A stretch of DNA of 41,111 nucleotides, taken from IMG/VR virus record IMGVR_UViG_2724679059_000002, positions 1 through 41,111 of that record, one strand, 5' to 3'. Below, in pieces: positions 3,237 to 36,147 of the stretch. Position 1 is the stretch's first letter, and every line of letters begins with the position of its first letter. The DNA is from a virus (lineage: Duplodnaviria > Heunggongvirae > Uroviricota > Caudoviricetes). A model generated the notes under the pieces. It made no database searches. It saw only the letters and a list, made by a program, of their open reading frames with translations, and was not told the DNA's origin. The position numbers and the translations under genes were made by a program.

Positions 3237-5231
3237 CTAATTAACTAATGAAGGGAATGTCGTATTAATTACAAGAACTGTTCCTGACGGATAGCTCTGA
3301 ATTGTAACTTTACCGTTTGAAAGTATATTAATGAGGGCAACCGATGAATCAGTACCTGATGGAATATAAGAAATATCATTCTTTGGTCTAAACCCTTCTG
3401 GCAATACCATAATAACTGTGCCAACAGATGTATTTCCACCTGTTAAAACAGCAGATAAAGTAACAACGCCCTCGGCTGATTTCTGATATGTTCCACTTCT
3501 TGCCTCACCTACAGACCAACCATTTTGCAATATGCCACTCATATCATACTGATTACCTCGCCATGTACTCCATGTATTCTCACTAATCCTTCCAATCCTC
3601 ATTAAGCAAACGCGAGCATTATCTGAAGAATAACCATAATTTTTTTGTACTACTATTCCGTCAACAAATCTATCAACCTGAATAACACCATCAAGAGGCC
3701 AAGAAGCATCATCAGGGTTTGTTCTCCACCATGAAGTCCCCATGTGAAAAGTATTTGGCGGATATGAGCTATTGATGAATTGTATGGAAGAACCATTGTT
3801 AGAAAAAAGGTTGCTACTCCCATTTATAACAGCACACGGTCCATAAATATATTCAAATAATAATTTATGTATCTGTGCGCTAAATGTTGAGTTTGGGTGT
3901 ATTCCCCTTCCATCGCCATAAGGGTCATCAAGCCAGTTACCAGCAGATCCTCTCGAATCCTGCCACATACCGTAAGTATCAAAAAACATACACTTATATT
4001 GTTTTGCTTTGGCTCTAAGTACGGCTGTCAGCTGCTCATACCATTTTTCATCACGTCCGTTTGGTGTGTCTGATGTTGAATTTGGAGACATGATAATAAT
4101 TGATTGCTGGGCAACTGATTTATTATTTCGTAACTTTGAAAGACCTCTATCTAAAGCATCTTTTACTTGATCCAATGTATAACCATAATATGGATCGTTA
4201 ATTCCCCATCGTAAAACAATCAAATCAGCAGCAGAAAAAACAGACCATTCATGATCAATATACCAATTACCCCATTCGTATAGAGTTTTACCTGAATGGC
4301 CTAATGATGTATTTTTTACATCAATAATTCCATACCTCTTTGCATAAAAATCAGCAATAGTTGCTGGTGGCCATAATTCAGAGTTAACACCAACAATCGT
4401 GGAGTCACCAGACCACAAAATATATGTTTTCTGTGATTTATCCACGCCATCTGCTTTTATCATCTTGCTAATAACATAATTAAGATATTGGTCACCAGTT
4501 ACAAAACGGGAACGAGGGTCAGAATACGTTGTTAGTTGAACACCTTCTGTATTAAATACACGCCCCCTGCGTTGCTCAATTTCAACACCATATTCATTTA
4601 ACAATGAAGATACAATTTCATCATCTTTCATCGTAATTACAGTTTGACCGGCTATAGATAAGTTTATGGCTTGCTGTATATTATTCCCTACAGCTCCAGT
4701 TCTTGTAATATCTGGACGCAAAGTACTATCACCACCTTCTATATACCCTTCAAGATAACTTAAAGTTACTGCATCCTGAGGGCTTTCTGGATCTTTAAGA
4801 TTTCTAATCCTGTTATTTAAAGCGTCGTACCAGTTTGCAATACTTGATGGTTTGCAAAGTGCAAGACGAAACAAGCTACGACATTGTTGAATCAGCATCG
4901 TTAGCTTATCAAACGCATCCTCATGCACCTCTGCAAAGAATTTACCCTGATTACGCAGATCTGTTTCCTGAGTAACCGGGAGCTCTCGTGATATAGAGAT
5001 CTGATAACCGTTGGCCAATGCCTTCGACAGTATTATATTACCGCCTCTATAGCCTCCCGCACCAGTGACTGCGTAATCAGTATCAAGAGCCAGCACAGTG
5101 ATATTCTCGTCAAGGTCAATCACCTGCACCACCAGATCAGATTTCTGGAAAATCCTAAAGGTATAAGGGAACGTAGTTGTAACACCGTTACCTGTATATT
5201 CGTTGTGGTCAACTTCGGTTGAGACCGTCAT
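3237..5231 (-). CDS. Tail fibre/tailspike: T7-like N-terminal adaptor domain fused to SGNH/GDSL esterase-like C-terminal domain
   Basis: N-terminus MTVSTEVDHNEYTGNGVTTTFPYTF...TDYAVT aligns by eye with T7 gp17 N-terminus; C-terminal region has WSGDST (GDS motif) and a distal DxxH-like motif (GRGIHP); C-terminal DNA looks AT-rich. Confidence 0.7.
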   Translation of the reverse strand: MTVSTEVDHNEYTGNGVTTTFPYTFRIFQKSDLVVQVIDLDENITVLALDTDYAVTGAGGYRGGNIILSKALANGYQISISRELPVTQETDLRNQGKFFAEVHEDAFDKLTMLIQQCRSLFRLALCKPSSIANWYDALNNRIRNLKDPESPQDAVTLSYLEGYIEGGDSTLRPDITRTGAVGNNIQQAINLSIAGQTVITMKDDEIVSSLLNEYGVEIEQRRGRVFNTEGVQLTTYSDPRSRFVTGDQYLNYVISKMIKADGVDKSQKTYILWSGDSTIVGVNSELWPPATIADFYAKRYGIIDVKNTSLGHSGKTLYEWGNWYIDHEWSVFSAADLIVLRWGINDPYYGYTLDQVKDALDRGLSKLRNNKSVAQQSIIIMSPNSTSDTPNGRDEKWYEQLTAVLRAKAKQYKCMFFDTYGMWQDSRGSAGNWLDDPYGDGRGIHPNSTFSAQIHKLLFEYIYGPCAVINGSSNLFSNNGSSIQFINSSYPPNTFHMGTSWWRTNPDDASWPLDGVIQVDRFVDGIVVQKNYGYSSDNARVCLMRIGRISENTWSTWRGNQYDMSGILQNGWSVGEARSGTYQKSAEGVVTLSAVLTGGNTSVGTVIMVLPEGFRPKNDISYIPSGTDSSVALINILSNGKVTIQSYPSGTVLVINTTFPSLVN

Positions 5232-5335
5232 GTTAAATCTCCAGATAGTCGCAGCACCCGTTGCGCCGCATATCCGGTTATTCTATTACCTTAAAAACCA
5301 TATATGGATAGATAACCCATAAATACGAACAGATA

Positions 5336-5350
5336 TTACCTTTCAGGTGA
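5336..5350. promoter_or_regulatory. Operator-like palindrome TTACC-N5-GGTGA upstream of antirepressor-like gene
   Basis: Member of the recurrent TTACC-N5-GGTAA family; flanking sequence resembles region 24338-24410. Confidence 0.45.
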
Positions 5351-5387
5351 TTCGCAAAACGTGCTGGATAGCAAACAAATTATTTGC

Positions 5388-5407
5388 TACTGTATATTTA
5401 TACAGTT
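5388..5407. promoter_or_regulatory. LexA (SOS) box
   Basis: TACTGTATATTTATACAGTT is a near-perfect match to the CTGT-N8-ACAG LexA consensus, 20 bp upstream of the ATG at 5427. Confidence 0.7.
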
Positions 5408-5426
5408 ATTGCATGGAGAAGATAAG

Positions 5427-5684
5427 ATGCAGCAGTATCACTATCCACTGGAAGAGGGATTTACCGAAAGGATTCACACGCCGGGAGGCGTCAGGTCACT
5501 GGTGGAGGGATCGCACTTGATGAAATTACTCCGGGATCTCGATAAGGATGGATTTAATGTCGATGGCCCACTTGCCGAACTGACTGCACTGATTAACTAC
5601 GTCACCAGCTCACAGATGTCTATGCAGGATCTGCAAACACATCTCGACTATTGTGCCGAACAATTACGAAAACAAACCAGATAA
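5427..5684 (+). CDS. Small antirepressor-like protein (paralog of the C-terminal domain of the Bro-N protein at 6000..6710)
   Basis: RBS ggagaag 5 nt before ATG; 85 aa; aligns by eye with residues ~170-235 of the downstream Bro-N protein (motifs PxGV, LxxLLxxLxxDG, DxxGxxAELT, DxQTH); preceded by a LexA box. Confidence 0.55.
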   Translation: MQQYHYPLEEGFTERIHTPGGVRSLVEGSHLMKLLRDLDKDGFNVDGPLAELTALINYVTSSQMSMQDLQTHLDYCAEQLRKQTR

Positions 5685-5715
5685 GGTTTGTAATTACCAA
5701 GTAGAGTGCTTATAT

Positions 5716-5730
5716 TTACCTCTGCGGTAA
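5716..5730. promoter_or_regulatory. Operator-like palindrome TTACC-N5-GGTAA
   Basis: TTACCTCTGCGGTAA between the small antirepressor-like gene and the Bro-N gene. Confidence 0.4.
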
Positions 5731-5999
5731 ATTTACATCGCACTCCTCTTGTGCCATAGTAATCGGGCACTGGCAAAATCCAGTGCCGGGATTGGCGTCC
5801 CGATTTACTAAGTGGCGCATACCACGCCAGACGTGGTTTTTTTATGCGTTAAGCACAGCTATATCCGAATTATGGTGGGCTGGGCAGGGGTCCGAAAGGA
5901 CGCCGGTACCACTTAGGCCGGTACGCCAACCTTGTCCAGTTCACCACCAGTAATTGGCGTTGCGGTGGTGATTAAAATCACTAAGTGGAGATAACCACC

Positions 6000-6710
6000 A
6001 TGGCTAATGCTCAAACTGCCATCTTCAAATTTGAATCTGTTAACCCTATCCGTTCCATCATTATCGATGGCCAACCATGGTTTGTAGCCCAAGACGTTTG
6101 TAGTGCGCTGCGTATCCAAAACGTCACCCAAGCACTTGAAAAACTGGATGATGATGAAAGGTCTATGTTCAACATAGGGCATGAACATCGTGCAATTTTT
6201 GACAGCCGAGTAAAAGAGATCAACATCATCTCCGAGTCAGGCCTCTACACACTGATCCTCCGCTGCCGCGACGCAGTGACACCAGGCACTATCCCCTACC
6301 GCTTTCGTAAATGGGTTACAGGTGAGGTTCTTCCTCTGATCCGCCGCACTGGAAGTTACATTAAAAACTCGCTCCCGCAGGAAGAACGCATAAAGATGGT
6401 TGCCGACCAGGTAGCCAACGCCACGGCGTCAGCAGTAATGCAGGCAATGAAGATAGAGAACAAAACCTACAGCGCCCCACTGAAGCCCGGATACCGCAGC
6501 CTGATTCATTCTCCGTCTGGTGTTCTCGGCCTGACGGAGAACTCACTGCTGATGAATCTGCTGAACCAGTTACAGGAAGACGGGCACGACGTATCTGGCG
6601 CGGCGGCGGAGCTGACCACCATGTTCTGCTACATCGTTGGTGTGAGCAAATGCCTGCGTGATATCCAGACTCACGCGGAGTATATCAACGACAAAGCAGG
6701 GTTCTTCTGA
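6000..6710 (+). CDS. Bro-N domain protein (phage antirepressor-like) with C-terminal domain
   Basis: N-terminus FKFESVNPIRSIIIDGQPWFVAQDVCSAL matches the Bro-N pattern; RBS ggag upstream; C-terminal domain paralogous to 5427..5684. Confidence 0.65.
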   Translation: MANAQTAIFKFESVNPIRSIIIDGQPWFVAQDVCSALRIQNVTQALEKLDDDERSMFNIGHEHRAIFDSRVKEINIISESGLYTLILRCRDAVTPGTIPYRFRKWVTGEVLPLIRRTGSYIKNSLPQEERIKMVADQVANATASAVMQAMKIENKTYSAPLKPGYRSLIHSPSGVLGLTENSLLMNLLNQLQEDGHDVSGAAAELTTMFCYIVGVSKCLRDIQTHAEYINDKAGFF

Positions 6711-6775: not shown

Positions 6776-6790
6776 TTACCTCAAGGGTAA
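6776..6790. promoter_or_regulatory. Operator-like palindrome TTACC-N5-GGTAA
   Basis: TTACCTCAAGGGTAA upstream of the small ORF / YafO-like pair. Confidence 0.4.
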
Positions 6791-6850: not shown

Positions 6851-7030
6851 ATGCGAAACGAAAAATTGCAGATGCGTAGAGCGCAAGCTGCCGCAAGACG
6901 TTCTTTCAATGGAAGCGTAGAGTACGTAAAAGTTACTATGACAAAAGATCACGCAAGTCGCGTATCCAGCGCTTTCTTTGATTCTCGTAACAATAAGGAA
7001 AATTATGAGTTTGTCTGCGTCGCAGAATGA
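6851..7030 (+). CDS. Small basic protein, candidate antitoxin-like partner (below the 60-aa track threshold)
   Basis: ATG at 6851 with SD tgagg 7 nt upstream; 59 codons; overlaps the start of the YafO-like gene by 26 nt in a different frame; Arg-rich N-terminus followed by a VKVTMTKDHASRVSSAF segment that could be a ribbon-helix-helix strand-helix. Confidence 0.3.
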   Translation: MRNEKLQMRRAQAAARRSFNGSVEYVKVTMTKDHASRVSSAFFDSRNNKENYEFVCVAE

Positions 7031-7550
7031 TAAAAATCAAATTGTCAGATATAAGGGTCGAGTATTGCATACGCAAAATTTCTCGGCCCTTTGTGCATCT
7101 GATCTTGAGCTGAAGAAAGTATCTGATGCATTTACCCAGTATTGGAAAACGGGATACCATCCATCTCTTGGTAAAGATGCCGCATTTGCTCGTCCGACAG
7201 AAATGCTTAAACTAAATGTCAGGCATACTCATGTCGATAACCAAGACTATATTCCAGAAGATAGTGATAAAAAACACACTGGTAAAAAATCATCCTGGGA
7301 TGCATGGAAAAATATAGCGTCTGTACAAGTAAAATGCATACCAACAAGTGATTGCTTTTTAGTTTATTCGGTAAATCACAATCGTGATGCGCTGGTTATG
7401 TTTTTTGTTGACGCAGATGCTCACAACATAACTGAGCAAGAAGAGTTTAAAGAGGCAGCAATCACTATCAGTTATCAATTCTTTGAGAAAACAAAAACAA
7501 AACCAATGCCTTTAGAAGAAGATCTTTTTTCTGATAAATGGAAGGAATAG
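7005..7550 (+). CDS. YafO-family toxin-like protein (ribosome-dependent mRNA interferase family)
   Basis: Aligns by eye with E. coli YafO: GKDAAFARPTEMLKLNVRHTHV vs GRDALYDDSFTWPLIKFERVAHIHL, and CFLVYSVN...ALVMFFVDADAHN vs AHLVYCQG...AWLLIAILKPEPHK; RBS aagga 5 nt before ATG; AT-rich. Confidence 0.55.
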   Translation: MSLSASQNDKNQIVRYKGRVLHTQNFSALCASDLELKKVSDAFTQYWKTGYHPSLGKDAAFARPTEMLKLNVRHTHVDNQDYIPEDSDKKHTGKKSSWDAWKNIASVQVKCIPTSDCFLVYSVNHNRDALVMFFVDADAHNITEQEEFKEAAITISYQFFEKTKTKPMPLEEDLFSDKWKE

Positions 7551-22115: not shown

Positions 22116-22408
22116 TCCTGTTCACTGGCCTCTTTGGCCATCTTCAAATACTGTTCAGGGCAATGCGCCATAACGCGCTGAAACAGTTCCAGCGCCAGAT
22201 TGCGTTGCCCCTCATTAAATGCCATTGCCATAGCGTCCATCGGTGAGATAGCGGAAAACACACGGCCTTTCTCCAGCACCGACCAGACAACGCGACGCCC
22301 CTGTTCACTGCTCATGACAAAGCGAATGTCATCAATTTCACGCTGTGCCATGTCACGTTGCTTACGGGCGTTTTCTTCTTTCAGTTGATCATCTTCGTAA
22401 TCTGTCAT
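22112..22408 (-). CDS. Hypothetical small protein between portal and scaffold
   Basis: 98-aa ORF with coupled stop/start to neighbours. Confidence 0.4.
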   Translation of the reverse strand: MTDYEDDQLKEENARKQRDMAQREIDDIRFVMSSEQGRRVVWSVLEKGRVFSAISPMDAMAMAFNEGQRNLALELFQRVMAHCPEQYLKMAKEASEQE

Positions 22409-23043
22409 TGTGATTGCCCACCCTGACCACTAACTGCATTCGCCATAGCTGACAAAACACTCGGATCCGAAGTTTTAGCTTCGCTTAGCGTCTTGGCGCC
22501 CTGTGCCGCCGCCATTCCCATCGCCATCATTTGTTGCTGCTGTTGCTGCTGTGCCCGTTGCTGGCGAGCCTGCTCAACCTGTTCCTGCGGAACAATGACG
22601 GTTGGAGACACTCCGGACATATCAGCGAATGCATCGATCGCCTGATCAACGTTGAGTTTGTCGAGAGCTTCTGGTTTCGCTTGCGCAAGTTGACCAATGA
22701 AGTTGACCGTAGACGCCAGACTGGACAGGCCGATAGACTTCTGCGCCTGAGCCATGACGGAAATGTATTCGACCTTCAGGGGCATACCTTCCATCGCGTC
22801 AGGCGGTGGCGGCAGCATGTTTTTACGCACCATCATCGAGAAAGCGCGGTCAATGAGAGGATTAAGACATTCGTCGTTCAGACGCTCCAGAACCGGCCCC
22901 AACATCAGAAGTTTTTCTTCTTTCATTTCGATCACCGCTTCAACAGGCATCGAGCGGGTATTGATGTTCTGCAACATCATGAACAGATCGACAAAGTAGG
23001 CGCTGTTAATGATTTGACGAGTGTCCTGAATGTCTGCCACCAA
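22405..23043 (-). CDS. Portal (head-tail connector) protein, C-terminal part after apparent frameshift
   Basis: C-terminus QQRAQQQQQQQMMAMGMAAAQGA resembles the T7 gp8 C-terminus; this frame stays open upstream past 23043, so the gene appears interrupted by a 1-nt frame change near 23070-23110. Confidence 0.55.
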   Translation of the reverse strand: MVADIQDTRQIINSAYFVDLFMMLQNINTRSMPVEAVIEMKEEKLLMLGPVLERLNDECLNPLIDRAFSMMVRKNMLPPPPDAMEGMPLKVEYISVMAQAQKSIGLSSLASTVNFIGQLAQAKPEALDKLNVDQAIDAFADMSGVSPTVIVPQEQVEQARQQRAQQQQQQQMMAMGMAAAQGAKTLSEAKTSDPSVLSAMANAVSGQGGQSQ

Positions 23044-24083
23044 ATCTGCTGTACTGGGGTTAACCAGATAAGCAGGCCTGAAGCCATCCTGACCAGTATC
23101 TGATCGATATACGTGATGTCGCCAGGAAGAAGGGAGGCGCGCTGATTCTTGAGGGAAGTCGGAGCAACCATCGGCGGATTGGTGGCTTTATCAATCAACT
23201 GCGACTTGCGCTTCTGGAGAAGCTGCAATGCCTTAACAGGTCCAAGCGCCAGCATACCAGGGCATGATGATCCATAAACATCTTCGCCGTTAACTTCCCA
23301 GCGCGGAGCCATAATTGGAAACTCATCGAATCCGGACTCACGCAACAACTTGTCGTTATCGCCACCAACCTCGTAATAAACCGATTTGAATGGCTTGTTC
23401 TTGCTATCCAGCTTCGATGTATCGCGGTCAATGTTCGGGTAAACCGAATGCATCACTTCAATCCACTTCTCGTAGGTGCCGCTTTCCCACATGCTTTTTA
23501 CGGATTCGCTGACGTTATTTAGCCCGAACTCCTGAACAAGCTGACGAACAGTCATAGAGAACTTGCGAAAACAGGTGTCCACACTGCCACGAGGTGAGTT
23601 AGCCAGGTAGTAACTGCCTATCGGGAATGGCATTGTGCGAATGATGTCCTCGTCATCCTCCAGCACTGCCATTGCACCAGTGCTGTATGTGCCGAGGCTT
23701 CCGTATAACTGCGGCAGCGACTGGTAGAGATTCGACTTATTGAACATATCGTTCATGCGGTTCTGCACCGCCTCAAGCCACAACTTAACAGGGCCATAAT
23801 CCATCATTTCAGGATCTGGCGTAGCCAGGCGAAACCACGGACGCGCGGGGCTTGTGATGCCTGACATCATGCCGCTGGCGAGAGTGCGCGCCGCCATAGT
23901 CCCGGTCGAATCAATAATGCGTGTATTGCGCCGATCGTTACGGTTGACCTCAGAAGTCAGAAAGCGGGAACCACGCGGGTTGATGTAATCACTCAACTCG
24001 CGCCAGTGCGGCTCGAACGACTGACGCTCGCTTTCAAGTTGTGCGAACTGTTTGTTCAATCGCTCTTTGGTTGTTTCCGCCAT
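22977..24083 (-). CDS. Portal (head-tail connector) protein, N-terminal part
   Basis: 368-aa ORF with RBS ggag; immediately follows terminase (across the tRNA/moron insert); joined with 22405..23043 gives ~560 aa, typical T7-type portal size. Confidence 0.6.
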   Translation of the reverse strand: MAETTKERLNKQFAQLESERQSFEPHWRELSDYINPRGSRFLTSEVNRNDRRNTRIIDSTGTMAARTLASGMMSGITSPARPWFRLATPDPEMMDYGPVKLWLEAVQNRMNDMFNKSNLYQSLPQLYGSLGTYSTGAMAVLEDDEDIIRTMPFPIGSYYLANSPRGSVDTCFRKFSMTVRQLVQEFGLNNVSESVKSMWESGTYEKWIEVMHSVYPNIDRDTSKLDSKNKPFKSVYYEVGGDNDKLLRESGFDEFPIMAPRWEVNGEDVYGSSCPGMLALGPVKALQLLQKRKSQLIDKATNPPMVAPTSLKNQRASLLPGDITYIDQILVRMASGLLIWLTPVQQIWWQTFRTLVKSLTAPTLSICS

Positions 24084-24372: not shown

Positions 24373-24409
24373 TTGACATTTAACGCACAAATTATTACCT
24401 TTCAGGTAA
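24373..24409 (+). promoter_or_regulatory. Candidate promoter (TTGACA -35) with overlapping operator TTACC-TTTCA-GGTAA, directed toward the tRNA and moron
   Basis: Perfect TTGACA at 24373-24378; operator at 24395-24409; same architecture as the promoter at 36105-36147 and sequence similarity to 5285-5350. Confidence 0.4.
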
Positions 24410-24731: not shown

Positions 24732-24808
24732 GTGGCATTAGCTCAGTTGGACAGAGCAACCGCCTTCTAAGCGGTTGGTCGCAGGTTCGAATCCTGCATG
24801 CCACGCCA
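24732..24808 (+). tRNA. tRNA-Arg (anticodon UCU), phage-encoded
   Basis: Full cloverleaf: acceptor GUGGCAU/AUGCCAC, D-arm gctc-agttggaca-gagc, anticodon stem accgc/gcggt with loop cuUCUaa, T-arm gcagg-ttcgaat-cctgc, discriminator G and encoded CCA; close to E. coli argU in the arms. Confidence 0.9.
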
Positions 24809-25515: not shown

Positions 25516-26991
25516 TTAAGCATATGGATCGTAATCTGTGATGGCCTTGCCTTGCTGGTTCTGCTGCCCGGGAATTCGCAGACGCTTCGACACAGGGAAC
25601 GCAAACGTCAGCAGTAGCGCATCGCCTTTACCAGGAGAACGCCCAAGCCGCTCCTTGATATCTTCCTTCGGTTCGATAACGATTTTACCGTCCACTCGAA
25701 CTTTGTACTCTGCCGCAGACAGGTCGTCCGCTGTTTCCTGGTCATCCAGCATGCCGCCCAGCCTCAGCCATGTCTTGCATGAGTTGAACATCTCCCCACG
25801 CTTGTTGAGCATCTGCGGGTCAGTAGACGCGCCACCGAACGGAACAAGTTGCCATGTACGACCCCAGCCATCACCGATTGACTTCAGACCAGTTCCGTAA
25901 CCGAAGTCGATGAACACTGCGTCAGCCTGGTACCGGTCTTCAAAGTCAGCGATACGCTTCGCCATAATCAGATCGTCAGTGGTCTTGTTGCCAGTCCACA
26001 GCACCTTACTGTGCAGCCCCTGCCGCAGGTATATCACAGCGTCATCAACGCCGGAGTATGCCGGGTCAACGCCGATTATCACCGGAGCATGTGCAACCTG
26101 CGCAGCGGTTACCACCCGTTTCATTGCCTCGTCAGTAAGGCCGGTAGGGATAAACTGCAATTCAGATGCATCCGGGAATATGCCGCGCACACGGATTTTA
26201 ACGAAGTCGCTGTCTTCCCCGTAGTCATCAACCCATTTCTGCAACTGCTGTTTGTTAGTGCCTTCCACCGTCCGGCTGTCAATCTGCGCAGTTTTCCAGC
26301 GGTGTTTATATTTGCGGAAACATTCGCGAAAACGCCCGGTGTTACGTGTAGGGTTTCCGAACGCCACCCAGATAATCTCAGTGTCTTCGTCCGTAAGCGC
26401 ACCCTCAGCAACTTCCCACACCAGATCCGCAATGTTCGACGCTTCATCGAATACCACGATGATGCGTTTGCGCTCGTTGTGTAGTCCGGCGAATGCCTCA
26501 GTGTTGTGCTCAGACCAGGGTATTGCGTCAGCCCGCCACCGCTTGTCGTGCCCAGGGTCATTGCTGTACATCGCGGTAGCGGTACAGGTAAACCAGTCTT
26601 TCGTGATAGCAAGGTTCGACCACTTGATAATTTCCGGCCAGGTCTTCGTTCGTAGCTGGTTGTCGGTGTTGGCGGTCACCACGACCTTACAATCCTCGCA
26701 AGTGGACATGCCCCAGTTGATCAGCATTGAGATGAATGCGGATTTACCAATACCGTGACCAGAAGCGCGTGCCAACATAAGCGGCTGATAGCGCGTCTCT
26801 GGATTCTGCAGGTGATCACGTATCTCTCGGAACGCATCAGCCTGCCACTGACGTGGGCCGGTAGCATGTGCCAGTTCAGTCCCCTCTTCCCCCCACGGGA
26901 ACGCATAGAGGGCATAGCCAAGCGGATCGTGAGTGAACCCTGCAATATCCTCGATTAACTGCTCTTCAGGAGATAACGCTGTATCTGTCAC
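25516..26991 (-). CDS. Terminase large subunit
   Basis: 491 aa; Walker A-like GHGIGKS; acidic nuclease-type motifs in the C-terminal half; positioned between terS and portal. Confidence 0.8.
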   Translation of the reverse strand: MTDTALSPEEQLIEDIAGFTHDPLGYALYAFPWGEEGTELAHATGPRQWQADAFREIRDHLQNPETRYQPLMLARASGHGIGKSAFISMLINWGMSTCEDCKVVVTANTDNQLRTKTWPEIIKWSNLAITKDWFTCTATAMYSNDPGHDKRWRADAIPWSEHNTEAFAGLHNERKRIIVVFDEASNIADLVWEVAEGALTDEDTEIIWVAFGNPTRNTGRFRECFRKYKHRWKTAQIDSRTVEGTNKQQLQKWVDDYGEDSDFVKIRVRGIFPDASELQFIPTGLTDEAMKRVVTAAQVAHAPVIIGVDPAYSGVDDAVIYLRQGLHSKVLWTGNKTTDDLIMAKRIADFEDRYQADAVFIDFGYGTGLKSIGDGWGRTWQLVPFGGASTDPQMLNKRGEMFNSCKTWLRLGGMLDDQETADDLSAAEYKVRVDGKIVIEPKEDIKERLGRSPGKGDALLLTFAFPVSKRLRIPGQQNQQGKAITDYDPYA

Positions 26992-27584
26992 TGATTACCA
27001 TCCTGACGTTCTTTGAGTCGCTTCCTGGCTGCTGCTATGCGATCAGCAATTGTCACATTCACATTAACATCCAGGCGTTCTTTGAATGCGTTGACGTCGA
27101 CGTGCTTACCAATCAGTTCGAGGTTCTTCACCTTGTCAGGCCATTTAATTTTTTTGAGGATTGTCTCTATCGAATCCTCGTTCATGTTCATGATGGTCGA
27201 TGACAGATCAAAGCCGCTAAGCGTAGTGCGCCAGATTTTCGGCCACTCGCGGATTGGCTTAAGGCTCCCATCGTCGTTGAGGATGTCGATCACGTCCATC
27301 TGGTCGATCTCCACCAGGCGCATGAGAACGTAATCAGCACTGACGCGCATTCGTTTGTTGCGCTCCTCCATCAACTCGGCAATCCGTTTCTGAATGCGTT
27401 CATCGCGCATCATGACACTGGCTTTAACTGCCGCTGTATTTGGGGAGAATCCTGCGTTAATCGCAGCCTGAGTCTGATTTTCAGGCGTTTTGATGTATGA
27501 CTGGCAATAAGCCTCCTGCATTGCTGTTAGTGGCTTAAATTGCGTTGATTTGCGTTTATAGGTTTTAGGTTCAGCAGGCATCAT
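26988..27584 (-). CDS. Terminase small subunit (P27-family-like)
   Basis: Immediately upstream of and overlapping terL; start assigned to internal ATG-ATG at 27584 (track ORF begins at a TTG at 27662). Confidence 0.6.
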   Translation of the reverse strand: MMPAEPKTYKRKSTQFKPLTAMQEAYCQSYIKTPENQTQAAINAGFSPNTAAVKASVMMRDERIQKRIAELMEERNKRMRVSADYVLMRLVEIDQMDVIDILNDDGSLKPIREWPKIWRTTLSGFDLSSTIMNMNEDSIETILKKIKWPDKVKNLELIGKHVDVNAFKERLDVNVNVTIADRIAAARKRLKERQDGNQ

Positions 27585-27658
27585 AACCACCGTGGTAATA
27601 GTTACCGTTGTGGTAATAGTACCATGCAAAATAAAGCCGCCATAGTTGGCGGCAGTAT

Positions 27659-33016: not shown

Positions 33017-33093
33017 TTACCCCTGAGGTAATTAAAAACCACATAAGACACGAAATCAATAGATTTTAGTATATTTTATTACCCGACAGGTAA
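33017..33093 (-). promoter_or_regulatory. Candidate internal promoter flanked by two operator-like palindromes
   Basis: On the - strand TTGATT-17 bp-TTTAAT, with TTACC-CCTGA-GGTAA (33017-33031) overlapping the RBS of the DUF1064 gene and TTACC-CGACA-GGTAA (33079-33093) upstream. Confidence 0.35.
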
Positions 33094-34974: not shown

Positions 34975-34989
34975 TTACCTTTGAGGTAC
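34975..34989. promoter_or_regulatory. Operator-like palindrome TTACC-TTTGA-GGTAC
   Basis: Member of the repeat family, just downstream (in transcription direction) of the hairpin at 35004-35023. Confidence 0.35.
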
Positions 34990-35044: not shown

Positions 35045-35275
35045 TCATGAGTAGAAGAAGTATGCCAGTTCTGCTTTTGAGCGCAGCCATTGTCTTGTTT
35101 TACAGGCTTTAAAAAGCCCATTCATCAATACTTTACCTGGCATTTTGCGCTTACCTGTTAAGTGAGTCTGGATATAGTGACTCGTCGTTCCGGCTTCCTG
35201 TGCGAAGGCTTCACGCTCATCCGGAGTAAGTGCAAGCCAGTGCTTTTTGAAATCGAAATGTCCGTTATCGCTCAT
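35045..35275 (-). CDS. Cro/CII-like HTH regulator (first gene of the operon divergent from the repressor)
   Basis: 76 aa; HTH-like segment AFAQEAGTTSHYIQTHLTGKR; divergent from the CI-like gene across an operator-containing region. Confidence 0.5.
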   Translation of the reverse strand: MSDNGHFDFKKHWLALTPDEREAFAQEAGTTSHYIQTHLTGKRKMPGKVLMNGLFKACKTRQWLRSKAELAYFFYS

Positions 35276-35311: not shown

Positions 35312-35374
35312 TCACCCATAAGGTAACAAAAATCAAGGATAGTTACCTATGAGGTGCATTTACCTGTTGGGTAA
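35312..35374. promoter_or_regulatory. Immunity-region operators: three TTACC-N5-GGTAA-type sites between cro-like and repressor genes
   Basis: Sites at 35312-35326 (TCACC-CATAA-GGTAA), 35343-35357 (TTACC-TATGA-GGTGC) and 35360-35374 (TTACC-TGTTG-GGTAA), centre spacing 31 and 17 bp; half-sites resemble lambda operator half-sites (TCACC / GGTA). Confidence 0.6.
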
Positions 35375-35429: not shown

Positions 35430-36014
35430 ATGAAAAGTATCCAGGACGTCCGCAGGCAAAATCTCAACGACTTGATCGACCGTGAATTCAATGGTGTTCA
35501 GACGCGGATGGCAGAAAAACTTGGAACTCAGGCAAATCTGGTAAACCGCTGGGCTCTTGGCAAGAAGGTTATCGGCGACCAGGTTGCGCGAAAAATTGAA
35601 GCTGCCGCCAATAAACCCCGTAACTGGCTTGATATCGATCGCTCGCTTTCTCAGGAGGGGTTTCAGCCTGTCGGCCCAAGCGACATTGGTCAGCTGGCGG
35701 CTCACAACCTGGAACGCTGGATGAGCGAAAGCCGCGACCTTTCAACGCAGGGAAAACTACACCGCGCATCCGGCGTCGCCCAGGTGACAATCAGCCGCCT
35801 GTTAAACAATGAAGTCAGCGTTTCCATTTCCACCCTGGAGAATGTTGCATCCGCATTCGGGCGTCACGGCTATGAATTACTGATTCACCCGCACGACCCT
35901 GCGACTATCAACTATGACCGCTCGCGCTACGCATTGTTACCCGAAACAGAGAAGGCAAAGATCGAAAGTTACATTGAATTTGTCATCAGCCAGAACGAAA
36001 GAAGCAAACAATAA
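35430..36014 (+). CDS. CI-like prophage repressor with two HTH regions and no S24 peptidase domain
   Basis: HTH at QTRMAEKLGTQANLVNRWALGK and a second HTH-like segment ASGVAQVTISRLLNNE; no Ser-Lys autocleavage motifs; divergent from the cro-like gene. Confidence 0.6.
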   Translation: MKSIQDVRRQNLNDLIDREFNGVQTRMAEKLGTQANLVNRWALGKKVIGDQVARKIEAAANKPRNWLDIDRSLSQEGFQPVGPSDIGQLAAHNLERWMSESRDLSTQGKLHRASGVAQVTISRLLNNEVSVSISTLENVASAFGRHGYELLIHPHDPATINYDRSRYALLPETEKAKIESYIEFVISQNERSKQ

Positions 36015-36070: not shown

Positions 36071-36147
36071 TTACCTTATGGGTAATTTTTTTAACTCATA
36101 TCTATTGACATCAAACCAAATACGCATAATTATTACCTCAACGGTAA
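36071..36147 (+). promoter_or_regulatory. PL-like early promoter with flanking operators
   Basis: Operator TTACC-TTATG-GGTAA (36071-36085), TTGACA (36105-36110), 17-bp spacer, AATTAT (36128-36133), operator TTACC-TCAAC-GGTAA (36133-36147). Confidence 0.5.

Follow-up and report, generated by a model that had tools for sequence, protein, structure and literature searches.

The locus at 5388-5684 raises the question of how the prophage that carries it leaves lysogeny after DNA damage. The preliminary description of this DNA had predicted that induction runs through a LexA-controlled antirepressor, on the model of Tum of coliphage 186 and of the Gifsy prophages, rather than through RecA-mediated cleavage of the repressor. 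To answer the question we consider in turn the small gene of this locus, the cassette that follows it, the LexA box in front of it, and the repressor on which its product is expected to act.

The window, meaning the whole stretch of 41,111 nucleotides that was analysed, opens with a TraT-like gene, continues with genes for tailspike, virion, terminase, replication, immunity and recombination functions, and closes with an integrase at its right end; it therefore holds essentially a whole prophage. Its sequence is that of an E. coli prophage of the epsilon15/phiV10-like kind (Uetakevirus), the region around the small gene being 92-98% identical to Escherichia phages HEMP4, TL-2011b, vB_EcoP_ZX5 and phiV10, all of them Uetakevirus, epsilon15-like podoviruses. 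The small gene, called ant below, is divergent from the tailspike gene (3237-5231), and the intergenic region between the two spans 5232-5426. A gene order with ant beside a divergent tailspike or tail fibre gene, ahead of leftward virion genes, is found in SPC32H, SPC32N, epsilon15, phiV10, Tyrion, BUCT554 and BUCT711; ant of the window has the same neighbours, the divergent tailspike gene on one side and the virion structural genes on the other, in a genome of the epsilon15-like type. The features discussed below are collected in Table 1.

Table 1. Features of the antirepressor and immunity regions, in order along the window.
Feature	Position	Strand	Basis or remarks
Rep-operator-like inverted repeat TTACCTTTCAGGTGA, 1 mismatch	5336..5350		About 15 bp 5' of the putative ant -35
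Putative ant promoter: -35 TGGATA 5365-5370, 17-bp spacer, -10 TACTGT 5388-5393	5365..5393	+	Inferred from sequence and conservation
LexA (SOS) box TACTGTATATTTATACAGTT	5388..5407		Consensus match and conservation in 8 phages
ant: 85-aa predicted antirepressor, ortholog of SPC32H Ant (epsilon15 gp19, phiV10 p24)	5427..5684	+	PDB, tblastn, PHROGs
Second Rep-operator-like site TTACCTCTGCGGTAA, perfect half-sites	5716..5730		Between ant and the isrK promoter
Sigma-70-like promoter TTTACA-17-CATAGT, TG-extended	5732..5760	+	Promoter scan; ends 7 nt before the IsrK 5' end; conserved in 4 phages
IsrK-family sRNA with intrinsic terminator (stem 5821-5837 and T run)	5767..5843	+	Rfam RF01394, full length
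C4-family antisense RNA	5868..5951	+	Rfam RF01695, full length
Predicted C4 target region in the Bro-N leader: TTGGCGT 5954-5960, ACTAAGTGG 5980-5988	5954..5990	+	Motif positions
Bro-N/Ant-domain fusion protein, 236 aa: Bro-N residues 17-112, Ant-like domain 153-234	6000..6710	+	Pfam, PHROGs, PDB
Divergent cro-like gene, 76-aa ORF	35045..35275	-	phrog_35 ('transcriptional repressor'), E 4.9e-12; position matches SPC32H_042 and epsilon15 gp39
Operator-like cluster: 35312-35326, 35360-35374 and a weaker site near 35344	35312..35374		Between the cro-like gene and rep
rep: 194-aa repressor, homolog of SPC32H Rep, two HTH-type regions, no S24 domain	35430..36014	+	PDB, Pfam, tblastn
Two perfect operator-like sites, 36071-36085 and 36133-36147	36071..36147		3' of rep, ahead of early recombination genes

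The product of the small gene has a close relative of solved structure. In a sequence search of solved structures its residues 2-84 matched chain E of PDB 5D50, described as 'Anti-repressor protein' (E 1.6e-47), and by tblastn it is 89% identical to the ant gene product of phage SPC32H. In GenBank, SPC32H and SPC32N both have genes called ant and rep at the corresponding genomic positions (SPC32H_020 is ant and SPC32H_041 is rep). Among the PHROGs, Ant matches phrog_450 (E 1e-47), which is listed as 'unknown function', and otherwise only phrog_15539 and the C-terminus of phrog_1760. Scans of Pfam and NCBIfam did not place this protein in any family, and a match to DUF724, which scored 17.6 bits where the cut-off is 38.4, was discarded as sub-threshold noise. 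The gene starts at an ATG at 5427 with a GGAG at 5415-5418, 8 nt 5' of the ATG, and its stop codon ends at 5684. A longer reading frame of 107 aa, started by a GTG at 5361, was rejected: it begins 5' of the LexA box, and the homologs start at the ATG.

The preliminary description had also noticed that this product resembles the C-terminal domain of the adjacent Bro-N antirepressor-like protein. This resemblance is borne out by an alignment of Ant to residues 155-228 of the Bro-N protein (42% identity over 74 aa, E 8e-16), and it extends to both reference collections: residues 153-234 match the Ant family phrog_450 (E 4.4e-36), and residues 155-231 match residues 3-79 of the 86 residues of 5D50 chain E (E 1.2e-13). 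The N-terminal part is a Bro-N domain by Pfam (E 9.6e-20). When nine free-standing Ants were aligned with three fused domains, 15 positions were invariant, and the motif DGHDVSGAAAE(L) recurs in the fused domains as well as in free Ants of the Klebsiella type. No third Ant-like domain was found in the window. Searching 50,697 phage records by tblastn, we found the fused Ant-like domain in 34, and every one of them also carries Rep and the small Ant. This confinement of the fused domain to Rep-bearing phages suggests that it also targets Rep, so that the Bro-N protein may be a second, RNA-gated antirepressor.

The gating by RNA is indicated by two Rfam-supported RNA genes that lie between ant and the Bro-N gene and were absent from the preliminary description. 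The first, isrK, scores 68.3 bits against RF01394 (gathering score 50), and the second, C4, scores 66 bits against RF01695 (gathering score 45). The terminator of IsrK is the only intrinsic terminator on the plus strand of this stretch according to a terminator scan; between ant and isrK the scan reported none, a hairpin at about 5704-5745 being without a U-run. Two short, unsupported open reading frames overlap C4 (5783..5953 and 5812..5916), and a 37-aa 'ash family protein' is annotated at this place in one related record.

How these RNAs might interact can be seen from where their complementary motifs lie. The hairpin loop of C4, CCACTTAG (5909), occurs once in the window, and its complement ACTAAGTGG is present in exactly two copies, one at 5807 in the single-stranded part of IsrK and one at 5980-5988, where it overlaps the Shine-Dalgarno sequence GGAG of the Bro-N gene (5987-5990). 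A single-stranded segment of C4, ACGCCAA (5923), is likewise complementary to TTGGCGT both in IsrK (5792) and 3' of C4 (5954); these two heptamers also have a few chance copies elsewhere in the window. In phiV10 and ZX5 the first of the pairing sites is altered jointly in all three of its copies (CCTTTTAG with CTAAAAGG), and in Tyrion both C4 pairing sites are altered jointly at all three places. Such compensatory covariation across phiV10, ZX5 and Tyrion is strong evidence for the predicted C4 pairings. When C4 was compared with its targets as whole molecules by RNAduplex, the result was marginal, 12 of 500 and 37 of 500 shuffles being equally good; because this test forces C4 to unfold, it carries no information, and we judged the pairing by the motif positions and by the three-way covariation. 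C4 is accordingly best described by its motifs as an RNA predicted to pair with the Bro-N ribosome-binding site and to block translation, with IsrK holding decoy copies of the C4 targets.

Since the Ant fold is present in full in the Bro-N protein and Bro-N proteins are usually annotated as antirepressors, it could be argued that this protein is the main antirepressor of the prophage, and that the small ant is an accessory or a decaying duplicate, the LexA box acting mainly via read-through into the cassette, from which ant is separated by no intrinsic terminator. However, the complete IsrK-C4-Bro-N cassette, present in the window, phiV10, ZX5 and Tyrion, is absent from SPC32H, epsilon15, BUCT554 and BUCT711, and the first, second and third of these four phages retain ant together with its LexA box. 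The crystal of SPC32H contains Ant alone bound to Rep. The small Ant also keeps 59-99% identity across four genera (tblastn), which is unlike decay, and in phiV10 it is the Bro-N reading frame that is broken into two pieces, with ant intact. We therefore consider it improbable that the Bro-N protein takes the leading part, and return to the small Ant as the likely effector of the switch.

The control of ant can be read from the region in front of it. The near-consensus LexA box that had been described directly upstream of the gene withstood each of the comparisons that we made. It agrees with the 20-mer LexA consensus TACTGTATATATATACAGTA at 18 of 20 positions (2 mismatches), and matches of this kind, with up to 3 mismatches, were found in none of 100 dinucleotide-preserving shuffles. 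A consensus search of the window allowing up to 3 mismatches found no second LexA box, and the window holds three CTGT-N8-ACAG sites, of which only that at 5388-5407 has an all-A/T spacer. We aligned the intergenic regions between the tailspike gene and ant of the window, phiV10, SPC32H, SPC32N, epsilon15, Tyrion, BUCT711 and BUCT554, and found that the box is kept in register in all eight. The sole difference between SPC32N and SPC32H in the aligned region is a C to A change in the ACAG arm (TATACAG to TATAAAG); this natural variant marks a critical base of the LexA box, and the box of the window has the wild-type C at this position. SPC32N is reportedly lytic, a single base change in its LexA box making the expression of Ant constitutive.

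The same alignment points to a promoter. The elements CTGGA.A and TA.TGT, 17 bp apart, are invariant in the eight homologous upstream regions, and this conserved spacing suggests the -35 and -10 hexamers given for ant in Table 1. Both proposed hexamers are weak, and a consensus promoter scan did not pick them up. The putative -10 overlaps the left arm of the LexA box, and we infer from this arrangement that the box overlaps the ant promoter. By homology, LexA would bind at 5388-5407 and ant would be SOS-inducible. In one published study, a microcin belonging to its set of DNA-damaging bacteriocins induced phiV10-species prophages in E. coli 21- to 47-fold, and this induction fits SOS control.

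The box lies within the divergent intergenic region that ant shares with the tailspike gene, and one could imagine that it serves the divergent tailspike/lysis operon instead, or that it is a chance palindrome, the small gene standing outside SOS control. We regard this as very unlikely: the box is 20 bp from the ATG of ant versus 157 bp from that of the tailspike gene, the shuffled sequences contained no such match, and its position is conserved in eight phages, one of which, SPC32N, has its natural variant within the box. The reading in which LexA controls ant is retained below.

The presumed target of Ant is the product of rep. This protein had been described as a CI-like repressor with HTH regions and without an S24 peptidase domain, and it was to be checked for a functional autocleavage domain. 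In Pfam, its only accepted match is HTH_3 (residues 106-147); residues 21-61 gave another HTH-like match, which is below the threshold, and Peptidase_S24 gave no match even at E 0.1. Matches to YdaS_toxin, LacI and HigA fell below the cut-offs and reflect only the HTH fold. Residues 1-190 match chain A of PDB 5D50 ('Repressor', E 4.5e-42) in an end-to-end alignment with the solved Rep of SPC32H, and the protein also matches PDB 5D4Z, a C-terminal fragment of the SPC32H repressor; the identity to the SPC32H rep gene product is 41.8% by tblastn. With residues 1-190 filled by homology to Rep, there is therefore no sequence left for a cleavage domain, and both earlier statements on the repressor hold. 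A homolog of Rep is also present in all 35 phage records of the phage collection that bear Ant (tblastn). That Rep cleaves itself under RecA stimulation, as lambda CI does, and that Ant is dispensable, is the least probable of the alternatives, a textbook default for which we found no supporting point, and against which stand the missing S24 match, the alignment of the whole 194-aa chain to SPC32H Rep, a structure of HTH-type domains, and the mere 45 or so residues that follow the second HTH region.

Candidate operators for Rep were also sought. A motif search for TTACC-N5-GGTAA found 13 operator-like sites with at most 1 mismatch in the window, where 0.73 were expected. Several lie around rep itself. 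In epsilon15 and SPC32H the motif occurs three times at the position equivalent to the interval between the cro-like gene and rep, and the epsilon15 counterparts of the two sites 3' of rep are annotated as 'repressor' binding sites. Other copies lie in the antirepressor region. The half-sites of the repeat at 5336-5350 are invariant in the eight homologous upstream regions, and the epsilon15 record annotates the homologous site as a 'repressor' binding site. At 5716-5730 the half-sites are likewise invariant in a comparison with phiV10, ZX5 and Tyrion, and the 5-bp spacer varies; a further copy follows 3' of the Bro-N gene (6776). With operator-like sites at both antirepressor promoters, that of ant and that of the isrK cassette, Rep probably touches both as well, either as a repressor or as an activator. 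Given the site just upstream of its promoter, the control of ant may be not purely by LexA.

These comparisons place the locus in a known family. In SPC32H, Rep is reportedly left uncleaved during the SOS response and is inactivated by the small Ant, which is made from a LexA-repressed promoter. All four of the defining features of the SPC32H Ant/Rep family that can be examined in sequence are found in the window, and by these features the locus is a member of that family (PDB 5D4Z, 5D50): Ant is an ortholog at 89% identity, Rep is a full-length homolog with HTH domains and no S24 domain, the LexA box has the same placement relative to ant, and ant has the same position divergent from the tailspike gene. 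The TTACC-N5-GGTAA motif, too, has the same arrangement around rep. The window differs from SPC32H in its Rep, which is only 42% identical, in its host, which is E. coli, and in the IsrK-C4-Bro-N/Ant cassette and a YafO-like gene that are inserted 3' of ant. In epsilon15 a terminator follows ant, and in the window it is replaced by the cassette; SPC32H is equally compact, with no terminator annotated in its record. A review places Kim and Ryu 2013 among the SOS/LexA-controlled antirepressor systems. According to a later paper, SPC32H Rep is a DNA-binding tetramer, and a tetramer of Ant binds two Rep dimers, thereby breaking the Rep tetramer.

The analogy to 186 Tum and Gifsy concerns the mechanism and not the family, the true family being that of SPC32H Ant and Rep. 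Tum of coliphage 186, GfoA and GfhA of Gifsy-1/3, and AntC of N15 are LexA-controlled antirepressors. As is predicted for Ant, each is a LexA-repressed small protein that binds and inactivates a non-cleavable repressor; unlike the SPC32H proteins, they have no sequence relationship to Ant that we could detect, and scans of Pfam, NCBIfam and PHROGs linked Ant to no other named antirepressor family apart from the C-terminus of phrog_1760. The Ant of the window is predicted to work like Tum, GfoA/GfhA and AntC while apparently standing outside their families. Nor is this a system of the lambda CI or LexA type with a self-cleaving repressor, Rep being without the C-terminal S24 peptidase domain and its Ser-Lys dyad.

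The cassette has relatives of its own, and by its organization it is an antirepressor cassette of the P1-immI / Gifsy-1-isrK type. The immI operon of P1 and P7 consists of the C4 antisense RNA, icd and ant, and the specificity sites of C4 co-vary between P1 and P7. The window shares with it a C4-family RNA having two single-stranded segments complementary to upstream and downstream sites, a downstream site that covers the ribosome-binding site ahead of the antirepressor gene, specificity sites that co-vary between phages, and a repressor operator at the promoter. It differs in that C4 would pair at the Shine-Dalgarno sequence itself of the antirepressor gene, no clear icd-like coupling reading frame having been identified, in that the antirepressor is a Bro-N/Ant fusion, and in that the upstream targets lie in a separately terminated IsrK sRNA. 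This last arrangement is that of the isrK-orf45-anrP-isrJ locus of Gifsy-1, in which the translation of AnrP requires IsrK acting in trans, and in which the C4 position yields a processed RNA, STnc1160 (Hershko-Shalev et al. 2016, PMC4825925). Both loci have a self-terminated sRNA of the same IsrK Rfam family, followed by an RNA at the C4 position and then by an antirepressor gene. Unlike Gifsy-1, the window has its cassette directly 3' of a LexA-controlled ant, in a podovirus, and has no adjacent antQ; among the tblastn matches of the Ant-like C-terminal domain in the phage collection, none were Gifsy-type records.

Taken together, the orthology to SPC32H Ant and Rep and the conserved box support the prediction of an antirepressor under LexA control, and we regard it as very probable that the locus is a lytic switch of the SPC32H type, in which a LexA-controlled Ant inactivates a Rep that does not cleave itself. 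In the lysogen, LexA of the host would sit on 5388-5407, covering the -10 of the ant promoter and its start region, and keep Ant off, and Rep would shut the early promoters through the TTACC-N5-GGTAA operators. DNA damage would activate RecA, the self-cleavage of LexA would follow, and ant would be transcribed. Ant would then bind Rep and strip it from its operators without proteolysis, and the early genes would be expressed. The contact between Ant and Rep in this phage is predicted by homology, and is an extrapolation because Rep is 41.8% identical to its SPC32H counterpart, as against 89% for Ant.

For the downstream cassette of IsrK, C4 and the Bro-N/Ant protein, the simplest view is that of a second antirepressor under the control of C4 and IsrK. 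A fuller version would be a circuit of two tiers acting on one repressor, with an SOS-driven Ant, a C4-gated and IsrK-decoyed Bro-N/Ant protein, and a Rep operator at the promoter of the cassette; we put this forward tentatively, as a possible arrangement that is rather less probable than its opposite. Transcripts started at the ant promoter during the SOS response would carry the IsrK decoy, as there is no terminator between ant and isrK. If such a circuit exists, the inactivation of Rep would derepress the cassette, and this would yield either a positive-feedback latch or a second route of induction that is independent of SOS.

The switch has already been described and crystallised for SPC32H (Kim and Ryu 2013, J Virol 87:11775; Kim et al. 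2016, PNAS 113:E2480), and the locus of the window is its E. coli counterpart, common in this species. Of 5426 complete genomes of E. coli, 529 contain the segment comprising the LexA box and ant, and 537 contain rep, meaning that about 10% carry the Ant/Rep locus. Homologs of Ant are found in Escherichia, Salmonella, Citrobacter, Klebsiella, Enterobacter, Yersinia and other genera, mostly under the label 'hypothetical protein'. As the ortholog of a solved switch, the finding is of small scientific weight in itself. It has a value for annotation, Ant being a 'hypothetical protein' in the E. coli records of this stretch and in most phage records. Beyond this, an SOS-controlled Ant that stands beside an RNA-gated Bro-N protein with the same domain could show how DNA damage and a second signal are integrated on one repressor.

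The inverted repeat TTACC-N5-GGTAA occurs 13 times in the window, against an expected 0.73, and its copies are dispersed throughout the genome (see table). This repeat is probably the operator of the repressor Rep (35430-36014). Outside the immunity region, it is found upstream of the antirepressor gene ant (5427-5684), of the promoter of the IsrK small RNA, of the small terminase gene and of the replication genes. This layout resembles that of phage P1, with its scattered C1 operators.

Operator-like repeats, portal reading frames and tRNA gene in the window
Feature	Position	Strand	Description
TTACC-N5-GGTAA sites	5336-5350		inverted repeat
	5716-5730		inverted repeat
	6776-6790		inverted repeat
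	24395-24409		inverted repeat
	27584-27616		inverted repeat
	33017-33093		inverted repeat
	34975-34989		inverted repeat
	35312-35374		inverted repeat
	36071-36147		inverted repeat
Portal ORF	22977..24083	-	Pfam Head-tail_con positions 2-321 of 489
Portal ORF, overlapping the other	22405..23043	-	Pfam Head-tail_con positions 342-488
tRNA-Arg	24732-24808		anticodon TCT, phage-borne

The genes for IsrK and the C4 antisense RNA (5767-5951) lie between ant and the gene for the Bro-N/Ant-domain fusion protein. Two sets of three-way complementary sites, 5792/5923/5954 and 5807/5909/5980, show covariation across related phages. In phiV10 (3766-4445) the annotation divides the fusion gene between two ORFs, p23 (194 aa) and p22 (29 aa), and a tblastn search finds the Ant-like domain as two separate segments. 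The fusion is thus apparently broken in this phage; phiV10 ant is intact.

Downstream of the Bro-N gene, and in the same orientation, is an ORF resembling YafO-family toxins (6978-7550; Pfam YafO_toxin, 25.7 bits with a cut-off of 25; phrog_1651). RefSeq assigns this ORF to the YafO family of toxins from type II toxin-antitoxin systems. No partner recognisable as an antitoxin was found for it. In E. coli K-12, yafO belongs to the LexA-regulated dinB operon.

The portal gene (22405-24083) is in two reading frames, and the division of its Head-tail_con match between two overlapping ORFs indicates a frameshift near 23000; this is a sequencing error, or else the prophage is defective. The tRNA-Arg gene, with an operator-like site close by, is flanked by the portal gene and by ORF 25516..26991, which adjoins the small-terminase gene and has no Pfam match. 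In the tailspike (3237-5231, - strand) the N-terminus resembles that of T7 tail fibres, and the centre of the protein is a GDSL/SGNH esterase domain; the tailspike may deacetylate O-antigen or capsule and not act as a glycosidase.

Ant and Rep differ in their identity to their counterparts in the Salmonella phage SPC32H (89% for Ant but only 42% for Rep), with no change in the operator motif. Such asymmetry suggests either that an Ant-binding surface is conserved on divergent Reps, or that the immunity region has undergone mosaic exchange.
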